A stretch of 64,000 bases of DNA from Candidatus Buchananbacteria bacterium (GTDB lineage: Bacteria; Patescibacteriota; Patescibacteriia; 2-01-FULL-39-33; JBAYJR01): positions 1,423-65,422 of the forward strand of contig JBAYJR010000008.1 in NCBI GenBank assembly GCA_041665005.1, given 5' to 3'. Under the pieces are notes generated by a model. That model was given only the letters and a program-made list of their open reading frames with translations, was not told the DNA's origin and searched no databases. How positions within the stretch are numbered: position 1 is the stretch's first letter; each line of letters opens with the position of its first letter. Below, one piece after another: positions 4,791 through 30,016 of this stretch. The position numbers were made by a program, and so were the translations under genes.

Positions 4791-5225
4791 CTACCAATCC
4801 AACGACATTGGTTCAATAACATCATCCTTAGGGTTCGGAGCTGGAGTTAGAATACAAAAATAAACTAACTGCTCCATCATTCCTCCGGCCTTACGAAAAG
4901 CGTGAACTACACCCGGTGGAATTATTACACAATCACCTAGCGCCACCTTAGTTATCTTACCAGCCAAAAATACTTCCCCCGCACCCCTTATAATCACACA
5001 AATTTCTTCCGATTTCTGGTGGCGGTGTAAAGGACCTTTGGTCTCAATAGCCACCTCAGTTAAACTTAAATTTTTAGCACCATTTTTTGGACTGACCAAT
5101 TGGTGCACTACTCCGATTCTCTCTCGGAGTAAGCCTGGAGTTTGCGGATTTTGCTCAATTAATACCCAATTATGCTGGGCATTCAATTTTTCTGCTAATA
5201 AAACAATTCCTGTTTTTTTGCTCAT
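4791..5225 (-). CDS. Cupin-fold protein (cupin_2 / sugar-isomerase-like small barrel)
   Basis: 144 aa with a cupin-like motif (GDCVIIPPGVVHAF). Strong RBS AGGAGG upstream. It is the last gene of the pilus operon. Confidence 0.55.
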   Translation of the reverse strand: MSKKTGIVLLAEKLNAQHNWVLIEQNPQTPGLLRERIGVVHQLVSPKNGAKNLSLTEVAIETKGPLHRHQKSEEICVIIRGAGEVFLAGKITKVALGDCVIIPPGVVHAFRKAGGMMEQLVYFCILTPAPNPKDDVIEPMSLDW

Positions 5226-26683: not shown

Positions 26684-26758
26684 TGGTGCGCTCGACAGGA
26701 ATCGAACCTGTATTGCAAGCTCCGCAAGCTTGTGTCCTATCCGTTGAACGACGAGCGC
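26684..26758 (-). tRNA. tRNA, probably tRNA-Arg. I read the anticodon loop as UUGCGGA, i.e. anticodon GCG. CCA is encoded.
   Basis: Hand-folded cloverleaf of 75 nt. Acceptor stem GCGCUCG/CGAGCGC, T-arm ACAGG-UUCGAUU-CCUGU, D-loop with GG, G37 and A73. The isotype call is uncertain. Confidence 0.75.
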
Positions 26759-26819
26759 CAATTGCTACTTAGGGCTCTATTATAGCCTAACTAAGCCCCA
26801 ATTGTCAATTGAGCTCTGT

Positions 26820-27332
26820 TTATAATTTCCACTTACGGGCTAAATAATCAGATAAAGGCTCATCCTGACGGCTTAAATTTTCTGGCAACTGTCGCAATAA
26901 TACCGCCCGCACTTCCACCGGATCATTATCCTGCAAGGGAATGGCCAAACGTGGGCGCAGGTAACTATCAAATTCAAAATGCAAATCTTTAACGGCTGGC
27001 GGTTCGTAAATAATAAAAAAATCTTTAATTTCTTTATACTCAAAAAACTTGTCAGCTAATTTAATTCCGTCTTCGTTAATTTCAAAATTTACAGTCAAGG
27101 GATCACGATTTTCATGTAAAGCAACAATCAAAGCAATTATAATTAGGCCCAAAGCAAACAAAAAATTAGCGGTCCAGACTGACCAGATAATTAATGCTAA
27201 GCTAATTAAACCAGCGGTTAAATACCAACCGCGGCCGCGATCGTATTGCACAAATTCCGGAAATTGCCAGCTAAAAAATACTTCACCGTGATCAGTGGCT
27301 TTTATTTTTTCTTCAACCATTGGCGTAGACAT
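26820..27332 (-). CDS. Hypothetical membrane protein (two TM helices)
   Basis: 170 aa with TM segments at about aa 35-75. No recognisable domain. Confidence 0.45.
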   Translation of the reverse strand: MSTPMVEEKIKATDHGEVFFSWQFPEFVQYDRGRGWYLTAGLISLALIIWSVWTANFLFALGLIIIALIVALHENRDPLTVNFEINEDGIKLADKFFEYKEIKDFFIIYEPPAVKDLHFEFDSYLRPRLAIPLQDNDPVEVRAVLLRQLPENLSRQDEPLSDYLARKWKL

Positions 27333-27442
27333 ATATTTAAGTTAAAGGTTATAAAATAACCATCTTTATTAGGTTAATTTTACTACTAGACATTATATCA
27401 CTTTTTTAAAGTTCTAAACAGAGCCCAAACTAAGGCCGACCA

Positions 27443-27482
27443 ACCAAAAACCGCCAGTATTTATTTTAGTTTACTGCGGTTT
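27443..27482 (-). terminator. Rho-independent terminator downstream of the LysE-like gene
   Basis: Imperfect hairpin aaccgc(c)agta...tactgcggtt with T5 on the minus strand. Confidence 0.4.
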
Positions 27483-27489
27483 ATCTAAG

Positions 27490-28107
27490 TTATTTTACAA
27501 AAAACCAAAAACTGGTAGCAATTGCCTTAACAGCAAAAAATATCAAAATTAAAGCAAAAATTTTAAAAACTATGGCTACTAAATCCCTTCTTAACAACCA
27601 CGGGCGTAATCTGGAAAAAATAAACGCTAATGATGCCGTGGCGACTAACCAACCAAATTCAAAAGTGGCTAAAAAAATAAATTGTCCACCCATTATATCG
27701 GCTCGCAAAGCAAAAGCCTTGGGAACACAAACTGTAATCCAAAATATCCAAAAAGCCCCACTTAAAATCGTTAAAATAAAAATTTTAAAAAAGGTAAATA
27801 TTTCTCGGTTCTCCCCCTCTACTCTATCTATTTTCCAAAGCTTGGTTGCCAACCAAATCAAAAAAATCGCTCCGGCAATTGAAACTATTTGAAAGTAAGC
27901 CGACGGAATATTTAAAGCAAAAACTAACAGTAAGATTAAAATAGCTACACTGGATTCAGCCAACAAGGCTCTAAAAATAACTCTAAAACTTTTTTTAAAT
28001 CCCCCCTTAAGCACTTCCGTAAAGACAGCAGTCAACATCGGTCCAGGCACCGCCCCGCCAATTAAACCCAAGAGAAATATTTCTACTATCTGACTAAATA
28101 TTTTCAT
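27490..28107 (-). CDS. LysE/RhtB-family amino-acid exporter
   Basis: 205 aa with six TM helices and an N-terminal LGLIGGAVPGPML motif typical of the LysE translocator family. Confidence 0.6.
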   Translation of the reverse strand: MKIFSQIVEIFLLGLIGGAVPGPMLTAVFTEVLKGGFKKSFRVIFRALLAESSVAILILLLVFALNIPSAYFQIVSIAGAIFLIWLATKLWKIDRVEGENREIFTFFKIFILTILSGAFWIFWITVCVPKAFALRADIMGGQFIFLATFEFGWLVATASLAFIFSRLRPWLLRRDLVAIVFKIFALILIFFAVKAIATSFWFFVK

Positions 28108-28129
28108 AGTTTAACCTCAACTAACAAGG

Positions 28130-28218
28130 CGGAGAGTACAGGATTCGAACCTGTGCGGCGTTTTTGAGACGCCCGCGGTTTAGCAAACCGCTGCCTTAAG
28201 CCGCTCGGCCAACTCTCC
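28130..28218 (-). tRNA. tRNA-Ser (anticodon GCU), type II with a long variable arm
   Basis: Hand-folded. Acceptor GGAGAGU, 3-bp D-stem GCC/GGC, anticodon stem GCGGU/ACCGC, loop UUGCUAA, a long variable arm, T-arm ACAGG-UUCGAAU-CCUGU and G73. Confidence 0.85.
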
Positions 28219-28226
28219 ATAAAATA

Positions 28227-28469
28227 TTAATTACCCAGTAACCACTTTAGACGCTCCCTGCCCTTGCCGCTTTTTAAAAACTTTTCCTCTTTTTGAGCGA
28301 AGTTTTTAGAAATAAAAGCTGCATAATAAACAAGCTGCCATGGTCCATTTTGCTTAGTGAACACGGAATTACCAGTCTTATGCTCAGAAATTCTTCTTTT
28401 TAAATCATTAGTAAAACCCTTATATAATTTACCGTTCTTTAAACTCTTTAATATATATACGTAATACAT
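28227..28469 (-). CDS. Small stand-alone GIY-YIG nuclease domain protein (copy 1)
   Basis: 80 aa. MYYVYILKS...GKLYKGFTNDLKRRISEH...GKGRERLKWLL shows the GIY...YIG motifs and the conserved Arg and Glu. Confidence 0.75.
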   Translation of the reverse strand: MYYVYILKSLKNGKLYKGFTNDLKRRISEHKTGNSVFTKQNGPWQLVYYAAFISKNFAQKEEKFLKSGKGRERLKWLLGN

Positions 28470-28483
28470 ATTAATTCACTCCC

Positions 28484-28535
28484 AGCCCGAGGCTGGTCGG
28501 CCTTGGGCCGAGGCCAACTCTCCCTAAAATTTTCA
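28484..28535. repeat. GC-rich hairpin element (copy 1) fused to a duplicated 5' end of tRNA-Ser(GCU)
   Basis: cccagcccgaggctggtcggccttgggc forms a 9-bp stem. It is followed by ggccaactctcc(c)taaaat, which duplicates the 5' end and upstream flank of the tRNA at 28203-28226. Confidence 0.55.
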
Positions 28536-28575
28536 CTATCTTATTCCTCTCTCTTCCGCTCATTACTACCCACTG

Positions 28576-28662
28576 CGGAGAGAGTGGGATTCGAACCCAC
28601 GGAACCAATTAAGGTTCGGCAGTTTAGTAAACTGCTGATTTAAACCGCTCATCCATCTCTCC
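28576..28662 (-). tRNA. Type II Ser-like tRNA whose anticodon loop I read as UUACUAA, i.e. anticodon ACU (unusual A34)
   Basis: Hand-folded, 87 nt. Acceptor GGAGAGA/UCUCUCC, G73, 3-bp D-stem GAU/AUC, anticodon stem GCAGU/ACUGC, a 5-bp-stem variable arm and T-arm GUGGG-UUCGAAU-CCCAC. Confidence 0.7.
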
Positions 28663-28769
28663 TGGTTATTCTTCAAACTTATCAAAACAACTAATGTAAT
28701 AACCACTATTGCATTTTAAACTACAAACATAGTGCCTAATTTTATCTTCCCGCCTTCGCTCGTTTTCTG

Positions 28770-28857
28770 CGGAGAGGGCGAGATTCGAACTCGCGAGACT
28801 CTTTTGAAGCCTAACGGTTTTCAAGACCGTCCCATTCAACCACTCTGGCACCTCTCC
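28770..28857 (-). tRNA. tRNA-Ser (anticodon UGA), type II
   Basis: Hand-folded. Acceptor GGAGAGG, D-stem CCA/UGG, anticodon stem ACGGU/ACCGU, loop CUUGAAA, a long variable arm, T-arm GCGAG-UUCGAAU-CUCGC and G73. Track ORF 28666..28851 overlaps it and is spurious. Confidence 0.85.
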
Positions 28858-28863
28858 AAATAA

Positions 28864-29115
28864 TTACTTCAAAGTATCAACTAACAAAAACTTAATTCTT
28901 TCTTTTCCTTTCCCACTTTTTAAAAATAATTCTTCAACTAAAGCATCTTTTTTACTAATAAACGTTTCATAATAAATAAGAACCCAAGGACTAAATGCTT
29001 TAGTCGACTTTACTTTTCCCCTATTATGATCAATTAGTCTTTGTTTTAAATCAGCAGTACTACCTTTATAGAGCTTATTTATTTTTTTACTTTTCAATAT
29101 ATAAACGTAATACAT
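28864..29115 (-). CDS. Small stand-alone GIY-YIG nuclease domain protein (copy 2)
   Basis: Paralog of 28227..28469 (MYYVYILKSKKINKLYKGSTADLKQRLIDH...GKGKERIKFLL). Start set at the internal ATG 29115, because the upstream part of the track ORF runs through the hairpin repeat. Confidence 0.7.
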   Translation of the reverse strand: MYYVYILKSKKINKLYKGSTADLKQRLIDHNRGKVKSTKAFSPWVLIYYETFISKKDALVEELFLKSGKGKERIKFLLVDTLK

Positions 29116-29137
29116 ATTATTATCTATGAGGTTTTTC

Positions 29138-29215
29138 GGCCCGAGGCCGACCAGCCTTGGGCTGGCAAGACCGTCCCATTCAACCACCCTGGCACCTCTC
29201 CAAATAATTACTTTT
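29138..29215. repeat. GC-rich hairpin element (copy 2) plus a duplicated 5' half of tRNA-Ser(UGA) with its upstream flank
   Basis: 29166-29201 matches the 5' end of the tRNA at 28822-28857 (36 nt, one mismatch), ending inside the anticodon loop. The following aaataattactt also matches the tRNA's upstream flank. The hairpin ggcccgaggccgaccagccttgggc precedes it. Confidence 0.7.
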
Positions 29216-29317
29216 AAATAACACCTAATGCCCTTATGAAGTTTTTCGGACCGAGGCTGACCAGCCTAAAAAAGACCTTAATACTATAATAAAAAACTTA
29301 ACCTTTGTCAATATTTT

Positions 29318-30016
29318 TTAACCCTTAGCCAAAACTAAACCAAACACTTTACCCACTCCCGCTTGTTTTAAAACTTTAGCGCATTCTTGCATAGTTGAAC
29401 CTGTCGTATAAACATCGTCAATTAACAAAATATCCCGACCAACCAGATCAACTGCCTTTACCAGAACAAAGGCCTTTGTGATATTACCAAAACGTGATCG
29501 ATGTTTTAATTGGGCTTGTGGTTTGGTATAACGTTGACGCTGTAAAACTTTTTGCACTTGTGATGGCTCAAAAAAATTAATGGCTAAATTATAGGCTTGG
29601 TTAAAGGTCCGCCATAAATAACGTTTAGGGTGCAGTGGCACCGGCACCACGATAAAATTTTTAAAACTAAAATCGTTGGCTAGTAATAACGGTTTAAACT
29701 TTTGACCTAACAAATCCGCTACTTCTTGAATAAAATTATACTTAAAACTGGCAATAATATTTTGCCAGATCGGTTGAGAATAATTGCCCAAAAACCACAA
29801 ACCATCTAAATAATTTATTGGCTTAGCCAAACACTGGTGATTAACTTTTTGCAACTGCTGGCAAGCCGGGCAATAAAATTTTAAAATTTGGGATAACAAA
29901 TTAAAACATTTGGCACACAGCCACTTCCCCTCTTGACCGCAGTTAACACAACTGGCCGGGAATAATATTTCCAGACACTCCTGCTTGATCTTAGCTAACC
30001 ATGATTTTACTGCCAT
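29318..30016 (-). CDS. comFC: ComF-family phosphoribosyltransferase (competence protein ComFC-like)
   Basis: 232 aa. N-terminal double zinc ribbon (CVNCGQ...CAKC...CPAC) and a PRTase motif ILLIDDVYTTGSTM. Confidence 0.8.
   Translation of the reverse strand: MAVKSWLAKIKQECLEILFPASCVNCGQEGKWLCAKCFNLLSQILKFYCPACQQLQKVNHQCLAKPINYLDGLWFLGNYSQPIWQNIIASFKYNFIQEVADLLGQKFKPLLLANDFSFKNFIVVPVPLHPKRYLWRTFNQAYNLAINFFEPSQVQKVLQRQRYTKPQAQLKHRSRFGNITKAFVLVKAVDLVGRDILLIDDVYTTGSTMQECAKVLKQAGVGKVFGLVLAKG

Follow-up and report, generated by a model that had tools for sequence, protein, structure and literature searches.

A 64,000-nucleotide (nt) stretch of the genome of a Candidatus Buchananbacteria bacterium (contig JBAYJR010000008.1, positions 1,423 to 65,422 of the forward strand; hereafter the window) carries, within an array of tRNA-Ser genes, two copies of a small cassette built around a GIY-YIG nuclease gene. 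It is probable that this cassette is a selfish element of about 300–350 base pairs (bp), specific to the class-II tRNA genes of Patescibacteria, with tRNA-Ser strongly preferred over tRNA-Tyr and other tRNAs only rarely occupied. The observations behind this proposal are the architecture of the cassette, its recurrence, its linkage to class-II tRNA genes at discrete positions, the covariation within its hairpins, its presence and absence at orthologous sites, its decay products, its serial copies and the purifying selection on its open reading frame (ORF). The parts of the cassette are, in order, a 30-nt twin hairpin (TH), a leader of 5–35 nt, a gene for an 80-amino-acid (aa) GIY-YIG protein and, 0–12 nt beyond the ORF or overlapping its end, the 5′ end of a complete tRNA gene, and in the integrated state the order is native flank, tRNA nt 1 to x, TH, tRNA nt x+1 to about x+7, leader, ORF and a tRNA running from nt 1 to its end. 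A complete tRNA gene thus stands downstream of the cassette, the old 5′ part being left behind as a dead, TH-split fragment, and since the whole tRNA is restored, the cassette can occupy an essential gene without splicing. A reading made from the sequence alone had proposed a selfish GIY-YIG element that regenerates tRNA-Ser, and this gained support, as tRNA linkage, 5′ duplication and hairpin recur in 80 independent Patescibacteria loci.

In the window, the cassettes, tRNAs and repeats described by the sequence-only reading are all present, with the orientation corrected: every cassette feature of the array lies on the minus strand. The tRNAs, called by using ARAGORN and Rfam, are tRNA-Ser(GCU), tRNA-Ser(ACU) and tRNA-Ser(UGA), in agreement with the three Ser-type tRNAs reported before, and they score 55–58 bits against the Rfam tRNA model (gathering score 29). 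Cassette 1 opens with a pseudo-tRNA, GGAGAGTTGGCC (28512..28523), which corresponds to nt 1–12 of tRNA-Ser(GCU) and belongs to a 27-nt repeat of 85% identity (family D6), the 15 nt on its 5′ side being also similar to the spacer 5′ of the real tRNA-Ser(GCU). It is followed by the twin hairpin TH1 (28482..28511; TCGGCC-caa-GGCCGA CCAGCC-tcg-GGCTGG), found by repeat search, by the 12-nt ORF1 leader gagtgaattaat (28470..28481), in which GAGTG matches D-loop nt 13–17 of the tRNA with one mismatch, and by ORF1 itself (28227..28469, 80 aa plus stop). The end of TH1 and the D-loop continuation together yield GGGAG 9 nt ahead of the ORF1 ATG, a putative Shine-Dalgarno sequence. The intact tRNA-Ser(GCU) (28128..28218, 56.9 bits) begins 8 nt past the ORF1 stop.

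Cassette 2 has the same plan. Its pseudo-tRNA (29166..29201) comprises nt 1–36 of tRNA-Ser(UGA), is identical at 35/36 positions to the gene at 28822–28857 and stops after the second anticodon base (canonical 35|36); the surrounding repeat reaches 63 nt at 90% identity (family D1), because it also spans the last ~21 nt of an ORF and the spacer. The twin hairpin TH2 (29136..29165; CCAGCC-caa-GGCTGG TCGGCC-tcg-GGCCGA), recognised by repeat search and family-wide covariation, leads into a 20-nt leader (29116..29135), whose first 6 nt, AAAACC, equal nt 37–42 of the tRNA gene before the sequence diverges, and into ORF2 (28864..29115, 83 aa plus stop), with the intact tRNA-Ser(UGA) (28769..28857, 58 bits) beginning 6 nt past the stop. 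The tRNA sequence therefore resumes past each TH, as GAGTG beyond nt 12 and as AAAACC beyond nt 36, which identifies the upstream copy as a 3′-truncated tRNA gene split by the TH. The 12-nt and 36-nt tRNA copies noted earlier thus stand, with the amendment that the tRNA continues 5–6 nt beyond the hairpin, and the shared start context of the two ORFs, also noted, is present but consists mostly of the conserved M-Y-Y-V codons. Upstream of cassette 2 lies a further unit (29202..29267), in which 29235–29267 is identical at 30/33 positions to the 3′ two-thirds of the TH plus leader, and 29202–29228 at 22/27 positions to the 3′ end of ORF2 (~21 nt) plus spacer (repeat families D1 and D5). These identities lead us to read it as an older, internally deleted cassette, and they bear out the third, degenerate hairpin copy that had been suspected there. 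At tRNA-Ser(UGA) and tRNA-Ser(GCU) the window accordingly has three serial units, of which the one furthest upstream has lost its ORF. The tRNA-Ser(ACU) (28575..28662) is a member of the native Ser-Ser-Ser array and stands outside the cassettes. Ahead of the array, downstream of a comF-like gene (30016..29318), lies a sigma-70-like promoter match (TTGACA-17-TATAGT, 29283..29311, 11/12), the sole strong minus-strand match within 27400–29400; this was probably the original promoter of tRNA-Ser(UGA) and would now drive cassettes and tRNAs. The last tRNA, tRNA-Ser(GCU), is followed in minus-strand order by a gene for a LysE-like membrane protein.

A scan of one genome per species gave 80 loci and, with the two window copies, 85 copies of the cassette. 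The ORF lies directly 5′ of a tRNA-Ser gene on the same strand in 71/85 copies (GCU 26, UGA 19, GGA 15, CGA 11), 5′ of tRNA-Tyr in 3/85 and 5′ of tRNA-Cys, tRNA-Thr and tRNA-Glu once each (3/85); five copies sit at contig ends and three are without a tRNA. The distance from ORF to tRNA is about −15 to +13 nt, usually 0–13, with the ORF of one clade ending inside the tRNA. Within the 130 nt upstream of the ATG that were searched, the canonical 30-nt TH is found in 74/85 copies, variant twin hairpins (5-nt loops in the tRNA-Ser(GGA) clade) or THs nested in THs in another 9/85, and no TH in 2/85. The TH is separated from the ATG by 5–35 nt (12–20 nt in the window) and is flanked on the left by tRNA nt 1 to x and on the right by a median of 7 (range 3–14) further tRNA nt. 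At 60 well-defined junctions the last tRNA nucleotide before the TH, x, is 12 in 21 cases, 13 in 14 and 8 in eight, with 34–36 accounting for ten, 20–21 for four, 14 for two and 7 for one. The left fragment is identical to its own downstream tRNA in 34/51 cases, and its mean identity is 93% to that tRNA against 69% to same-anticodon tRNAs of other loci, so it is a copy of the local tRNA gene. The grouping of the ORFs into clades agrees with insertion position and TH type, but not with anticodon.

The TH is composed of two adjacent hairpins, each having a 6-bp stem and a 3-nt loop, with the consensus NNNGCC-CNA-GGCNNN NNNGCC-TNG-GGCNNN, which is symmetric under reverse complementation; the conserved GC-rich hairpin of the sequence-only reading is hence real, but its consensus was imprecise. 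When TH copies are extracted through the inner GCC/GGC anchors only, which keeps the pairing test unbiased, Watson-Crick pairs make up 280/282 of the cases at the three outer positions of each stem, compared with 60% (maximum 69.5% in 1000 shuffles) when stem partners are shuffled between elements. Double-sided changes affect 10/12 pairs in 57 distinct copies, a set that had itself been chosen for pairing; 0/500 shuffles reach the observed values and slid controls collapse. The loop middles showed no covariation. Taken as a single long hairpin or global palindrome, the TH fails, with 47% of outer and central bases paired versus 99% as two local hairpins. Such pairing argues that the TH is a selected structure. 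The census of 684 pairs (676 Watson-Crick, 5 G-T, 1 A-C and 2 other) gives it the look of a palindrome in DNA more than that of a typical RNA stem, and the wobble strand test gives 5 G-T versus 1 A-C on the sense strand, where the numbers are small. TH1 and TH2 are mutual reverse complements with two mismatches, which amounts to a swapped stem order, and one pair of loci (L007/L008) shows 0 differences over the ~67 nt of TH plus leader, in flanks that themselves differ by only 4–6%.

The distribution of the TH is restricted. In the window there are three copies, all inside the array, plus one doubtful remnant, when the number of 30-nt TH matches expected by chance in window shuffles is 0.00. 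In 460 kb of loci, THs are nearly confined to ORF upstream regions or to remnants and footprints in tRNA contexts, and the module is not scattered over many non-tRNA sites, the pattern that the sequence-only reading had set against its own proposal. A search of 27500–30000 against Rfam 15 at E≤1 returned tRNA-derived matches only, with no intron and no known hairpin family. The doubtful remnant, GGTTGGTCGGCCTTAG (27425–27450, minus strand), lies 45 nt 3′ of the LysE-like ORF and is similar to the TH centre; a 12-mer within it has one mismatch to that centre, 0.14 such matches being expected per window, and it may be a fourth, heavily decayed hairpin or a chance match.

The comparison of orthologous tRNA-Ser loci, which the sequence-only reading had recommended, was made in a second, unbiased sample of 73 metagenome loci (L081–L153) anchored on the comF-like neighbour, whose product is at most 42% identical to that of the window. 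The order comF-like, Ser(UGA), [Ser(ACU)], Ser(GCU), one gene, Arg(GCG) is kept in highly divergent Patescibacteria (26684–30016 in the window; ComF 30–42% identical), and the sites are mostly empty: a GIY-YIG ORF lies 5′ of 2/60 syntenic tRNA-Ser genes, a ~3% occupancy, and 58/60 are without one. A TH was present at only three of the 60 (L097, L101, L104); across the 6.7 kb retrieved, L101 and L104 share 99.985% identity. One pair, L097 and L101, has flanks that are 97% identical and differs by one precise 307-nt segment at 14|15 of tRNA-Ser(UGA). In L101 the tRNA-Ser(UGA) is intact and unoccupied at that site, and L097 reads native flank, tRNA(1–14), TH, GTGG-caaaat-ATG and the ORF, and then tRNA(1–14) continuing with nt 15 to the end. 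A 14-nt repeat, whose first nucleotide is exactly tRNA position 1, delimits the difference, and it is the fragment that retains the native flank. When further occupied/empty pairs were sought by flank similarity across all loci, only pairs with both members occupied were found, and nothing closely related to the window genome turned up, comF-like matches reaching 42% identity at most.

Decay products are frequent. Units without an ORF occur in the window (29202–29267) and in L001, L017 and L101, and as their tRNA fragments keep the hairpin and ORF remnants, they are decayed copies; tRNA fragments standing in relatives without any trace of the gene, which the sequence-only reading had named as an adverse finding, were thus not what was seen. 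A pseudo-tRNA without a TH follows the ORF in L020 and L154, and two otherwise complete tRNAs are broken by a TH alone, at L024:4121 (12|13) and L154:2908 (35|36). These TH-only tRNAs, which were seen only where a second functional copy is present, are what recombination between the right-hand tRNA repeats would be expected to yield. Between L154 and L158, members of one population, a 58-nt unit has been lost by TH-TH recombination, and nested THs are found in L071, L030, L062, L068 and L097.

The two ORFs match the GIY-YIG profile PF01541 with E-values of 3.6e-15 (ORF1) and 1.1e-14 (ORF2), scores of 55–56 bits against a cut-off of 22.6 and coverage of profile positions 1–74 of 78, a full-length domain match that agrees with their earlier assignment as GIY-YIG ORFs of 80 and 83 aa. 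Between themselves they share 60% identity. An NCBI protein (P0001) of a Candidatus Buchananbacteria metagenome-assembled genome has the same sequence as ORF1 (100% identity), and hundreds of relatives at 65–82% identity come from many lineages of Patescibacteria (the candidate phyla radiation, CPR). Across 35 sequences Y5, Y16, R26, H30, E61 and E62 are invariant and G18 nearly so (≥90%); all family-invariant catalytic-type residues are kept in both ORFs, and they are those expected of an active GIY-YIG site. The AlphaFold2 model of ORF1 (predicted local distance difference test, pLDDT, 92) has a three-stranded sheet with helices and matches the folds of 1zg2, Slx1, I-TevI (1ln0) and UvrC (1yd6). 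The nearest solved structures by sequence and fold are the UPF0213 proteins BH0048 and EF2693 (1zg2, E 3e-11, 41% identity; 1ywl, E 1e-6), the Slx1 nuclease domain gives a template modelling (TM) score of about 0.65–0.70, and the I-TevI catalytic domain and the UvrC N-terminal domain come next. The cassette protein is accordingly predicted to be a minimal, stand-alone nuclease domain of UPF0213/Slx1 type. A Pfam search of the 80–83-aa proteins returned the catalytic domain only, with no DNA-binding modules (NUMOD, IENR1, helix-turn-helix, zinc finger). Two other assignments were set aside: the group I intron endonuclease model TIGR01453 (NCBIfam) covers residues 4–39 only, far below its cut-off, and the PADLOC defence models gave a weak UzuA match only (E 0.005).

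The ORFs are under purifying selection, the median ratio of nonsynonymous to synonymous change (dN/dS) being 0.30, with 0.02–0.13 for the closest pairs, and most loci are saturated relative to one another at synonymous sites (median pS 0.82). The wider stand-alone family counts 19,963 clusters at 50% identity (E≤1e-3), and UPF0213/COG2827 as a whole is very large and uncharacterised. The automatic ORF call at 28864–29187 (minus strand) crosses the hairpin and the pseudo-tRNA to give a 107-aa product beginning MVEWDGLASPRLVGLGPKN, and many database homologues of 100–137 aa (e.g., P0120) carry N-terminal extensions such as PTSLGLG, a translated hairpin; such extensions of GIY-YIG homologues are annotation artefacts.

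These elements can be assembled into a proposed life cycle. The array would be transcribed from the tRNA's own promoter, and the RNase P cut at the restored tRNA 5′ end would free an mRNA carrying the TH at its 5′ end. The nuclease would then break an unoccupied tRNA gene at or near position x, and repair of the break from an occupied copy would bring in TH, leader, ORF and tRNA(1..x), with the tRNA sequences on both sides of the cassette acting as homology arms. If the conserved tRNA itself supplies both arms, this would explain why the repeat starts precisely at tRNA position 1 and stops at the TH. The tRNA nucleotides on the right-hand side would permit an alternative, usually lethal, copying of the TH alone, which matches the rare TH-only tRNAs. 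In the fragment left behind, the TH would split the target sequence, and it may also restrain translation of the nuclease, as hairpins 5′ of T4 homing endonuclease genes throttle translation (PMC2988022). Re-invasion of the restored tRNA would build tandem arrays in which older upstream units decay, as in the window. Insertions at stem-loop junctions or loop centres, the nested THs and the Slx1-like fold suggest that target choice reads structure instead of sequence. A bolder version, which we hold as a tentative and rather doubtful possibility, is that the Slx1-like 80-aa domain reads DNA shape, that the TH is the minimal transposable unit and that the ORF is co-copied through tRNA homology, which would be a new kind of DNA mobility; that the shapes concerned are the stem-loop junctions and loops of extruded tRNA-gene cruciforms, together with the cassette's own TH, is similarly speculative.

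Several points weigh against a homing element of this kind. Cleavage of tRNA genes by the nuclease is assumed, and spread may be by homing or by another recombination route. Known GIY-YIG homing enzymes owe their specificity to DNA-binding modules, and the protein, being only a catalytic domain, has none of these. In most lineages the left homology arm measures only 8–14 nt, short for RecA-type repair, and the restored tRNA keeps an intact target, which leaves self-immunity without explanation. The copies within one genome are only ~60–75% identical (60% in the window), and this divergence, with the saturated synonymous sites, gives no sign of recent transposition between the tRNA genes of one genome. 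Old insertions and frequent loss could account for much of the distribution, and the L097/L101 difference itself could be a precise deletion between the 14-nt repeats instead of a gain. The fragment type differs from the adjacent tRNA in L039, L050, L042 and L001, and in the L154 family a resident 3′ half stands 3′ of a different functional tRNA, so that the transferred unit is not always the same.

Four other explanations have to be weighed against the selfish cassette. The 30-nt TH might be the real mobile unit, a miniature palindrome comparable to repetitive extragenic palindromic (REP) sequences and REPINs, which RAYT transposases move, with the GIY-YIG protein as a structure-specific mobilising nuclease and the ORF carried along only when repair uses the longer downstream tRNA homology. 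Both parts of this proposal seem unlikely to us, even though the nested THs listed above, the TH-only interruptions at L024:4121 and L154:2908, a TH position that moves between 8|9 and 12|13 among closely related ORFs and a fold nearest to the branched-DNA nuclease Slx1 all speak for it, and the near-perfect palindromy (676 Watson-Crick pairs) with a symmetric consensus fits a DNA-level feature better than RNA. The THs are not dispersed, however, being nearly confined in the 460 kb to the 130 nt 5′ of ORFs or to decayed cassettes; the solo THs are few, each derivable from a full cassette by deletion between tRNA repeats; and there is no within-genome family of many identical copies, unlike the situation for REPINs. 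It is quite unlikely, too, that the gene is a non-mobile small nuclease that benefits the host, for example in repair or defence, and that has long been co-transcribed with tRNA-Ser, and the same applies to the accompanying idea that tRNA fragments and hairpins are by-products of local duplication serving as a 5′ untranslated region (UTR) or regulatory structure. Strong purifying selection, ancient divergence and a fixed position relative to the tRNA in all lineages would suit a host gene, stable hairpins just 5′ of nuclease ORFs are known to throttle translation (PMC2988022), and an RNA role would be consistent with G-T mispairs being slightly commoner than A-C on the sense strand (5 vs 1). 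Yet only ~3% of tRNA-Ser genes in the unbiased syntenic sample are occupied, the cassette is polymorphic between 97%-identical genomes, various tRNA genes (four Ser anticodons, Tyr, Cys, Thr, Glu) are occupied at various positions, decayed copies stand in tandem, known defence families gave no significant match, and the tRNA fragments match the local gene too well for ancient neutral relics.

A small circle or segment integrated by a site-specific recombinase of the host or of a helper would also regenerate the tRNA, restoration by a carried tRNA part being a well-established hallmark of integrase-type islands. The TH, with its 9-nt inverted arms and 6-nt centre, would then be the recombination site, its dyad symmetry and 6-nt central spacer suiting such a role, and the tRNA 5′ part would be the attP-like homology. 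We regard both the integration and these assignments as very improbable: the cassette encodes one 80-aa ORF and no integrase or recombinase, the 5′ end is duplicated instead of the 3′ end, insertion positions vary between lineages, and the outer and central TH bases pair as two local hairpins (99%) and not as one recombinase core (47%). Hardly credible is the remaining explanation, that the cassettes are remnants of group I introns with a homing endonuclease gene that once interrupted the tRNA at 35/36. Such introns are enriched in Patescibacteria tRNA genes, occurring at 35/36 of tRNA-Asn and tRNA-Asp (PMC13011429), the TH lies at 35|36 in one cassette lineage, to which cassette 2 belongs, and the sub-threshold TIGR01453 match points weakly the same way. 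Against this, there was no match to a group I or group II intron ribozyme even at E≤1, most copies sit in the D-arm and not in the anticodon loop, the downstream tRNA is complete and uninterrupted instead of being a 3′ exon, and a TH-ATG distance of only 5–35 nt with a stop-tRNA distance of only 0–12 nt leaves no room for a ribozyme. The intron-remnant reading of the cassettes, which the sequence-only reading had offered as a decayed tRNA-intron-derived element, is thus essentially refuted.

By analogy, the selfish cassette would behave most like a free-standing homing endonuclease gene, and it has one trait of such genes, namely sporadic occupancy at homologous sites (2/60; L097 vs L101) together with degenerate copies; lacking DNA-binding modules, it fails the structural definition of homing endonucleases. 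The Seg family of T-even phages comes closest, with SegB lying in the T4 tRNA gene cluster: its members, like the cassette, are non-intron GIY-YIG genes among tRNA genes and, as proposed here, selfish markers inherited by break and repair. The T4 genes of this type have hairpins just 5′ of the ORF that are used for translational control (PMC2988022), and the cassette also has an upstream hairpin. However, Seg proteins exceed 200 aa and have DNA-binding domains, whereas the cassette protein is an 80-aa catalytic domain only, and Seg genes are intergenic without target duplication, whereas the cassette has a tRNA 5′ repeat and a conserved TH. Searches of phage records found no relatives of the cassette, and IMG/VR gave three distant matches only, without tRNAs; on the basis of these searches, carriage by phages is not supported. 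The nearest relatives by sequence and fold, the UPF0213/YhbQ (COG2827) proteins, share the size and single domain of the cassette protein, and genes of the BH0048/EF2693 type are not known to be linked to tRNAs or to have a twin hairpin. Slx1 has a RING domain and needs Slx4, whereas the cassette protein has no extra domain.

Other systems resemble the cassette in part. Integrase-type tRNA islands and prophages also insert in a tRNA gene, restore the displaced part and leave a direct tRNA repeat, but they use a tyrosine or serine recombinase, duplicate the 3′ part and span kilobases, whereas the cassette has no recombinase, duplicates the 5′ part and measures ~0.3 kb. Tsurumaki and others described GIY-YIG ORFs in insertions of CPR rRNA genes that are unlike group I/II introns (Tsurumaki et al., 2024, PMC11270868). 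These share with the cassette the host group and the location of GIY-YIG ORFs within structural RNA genes, but no tRNA association, target regeneration or twin hairpin is reported for them. REP/REPIN-RAYT systems and the mobile GC clusters of yeast mitochondria are likewise short GC-rich palindromes in an AT-rich genome, and in REP/REPIN-RAYT the palindrome is also tied to one dedicated enzyme gene, with nested insertions; however, REP/REPIN copies are dispersed and depend on an HUH/Y1 transposase, whereas no HUH protein accompanies the cassette and its TH is tied to one gene and to tRNA targets. In the searchable literature, no description of the tRNA-Ser cassette or of its twin hairpin was found.

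If the selfish cassette is what it seems, it would represent a third way for a selfish gene to occupy an essential structural-RNA gene, besides self-splicing introns and inteins and besides integrase att-site duplication, since it rebuilds the 5′ end of the gene beside itself and uses a conserved palindrome to put the remaining fragment out of action. It also provides a biological context for a minimal GIY-YIG nuclease of the uncharacterised UPF0213/Slx1-like branch, a nuclease that apparently needs only 80 aa for a target-specific way of life. Should the DNA-shape reading hold, part of the UPF0213/COG2827 family (~20,000 clusters at 50% identity) would gain a role, and a nuclease that reads DNA structure would make an interesting tool enzyme of very small size. 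For the genomics of Patescibacteria, with their very few tRNA genes, the cassette yields mis-called ORFs, pseudo-tRNAs and changes in tRNA copy number, and it may interrupt assemblies near tRNA-Ser genes, related contigs ending right at the cassette. Contigs ending ~100–300 nt from the cassette or tRNA (L001, L009, L011, L014, L017, L025–L027, L058, L066 and others) suggest that repeated tRNA pieces and hairpins break short-read Patescibacteria assemblies.

Some further observations concern the same tRNA loci. In a Veblenbacteria-like population (L154:2744–2990, and L155–L163), a functional tRNA-Ser(UGA) with the acceptor stem GGAGGGG lies between two pieces of a different resident tRNA with the acceptor stem GGAGGCG/CGCCTCC, namely its 5′ part (nt 1–33) and its 3′ half, which is split by a TH, and it looks as if a whole tRNA gene was imported there together with the cassette. 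Orphan tRNA 3′ halves 3′ of the functional tRNA, expected if the whole tRNA were always imported, were found in 0/77 elements, this family being the exception. In L083, whose comF-like protein is 40% identical to that of the window, a more distant GIY-YIG ORF (4800–5070, minus strand; ~43% identical) belongs to the same Ser-tRNA array; it lies ~90 nt 5′ of tRNA-Ser(UGA), without twin hairpin or tRNA fragment, is missing from the close relative L084 and may represent a second, different cassette type. A 17-nt motif, ACGAGCGAARGCGGGAA, stands at 28747–28763 (minus strand), a few nt 3′ of a tRNA-Ser gene, and recurs twice in L083 (5090–5106 and 5276–5292, minus strand), a few tens of nt 3′ of tRNA-Ser, where it belongs to a ~70-nt trailer repeated after two tRNAs. 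Finally, an unmodified-looking A34 tRNA other than tRNA-Arg(ACG) is unusual in bacteria, and the tRNA-Ser(ACU) of the window, located between tRNA-Ser(UGA) and tRNA-Ser(GCU), has A34 in the anticodon loop TTACTAA; the same ACU anticodon stem-loop occurs in five other Patescibacteria loci (L083:5339–5427, L084:5082–5171, L102:4013–4100, L111:1478–1567 and L136:5868–5955), beside a normal GCU tRNA.

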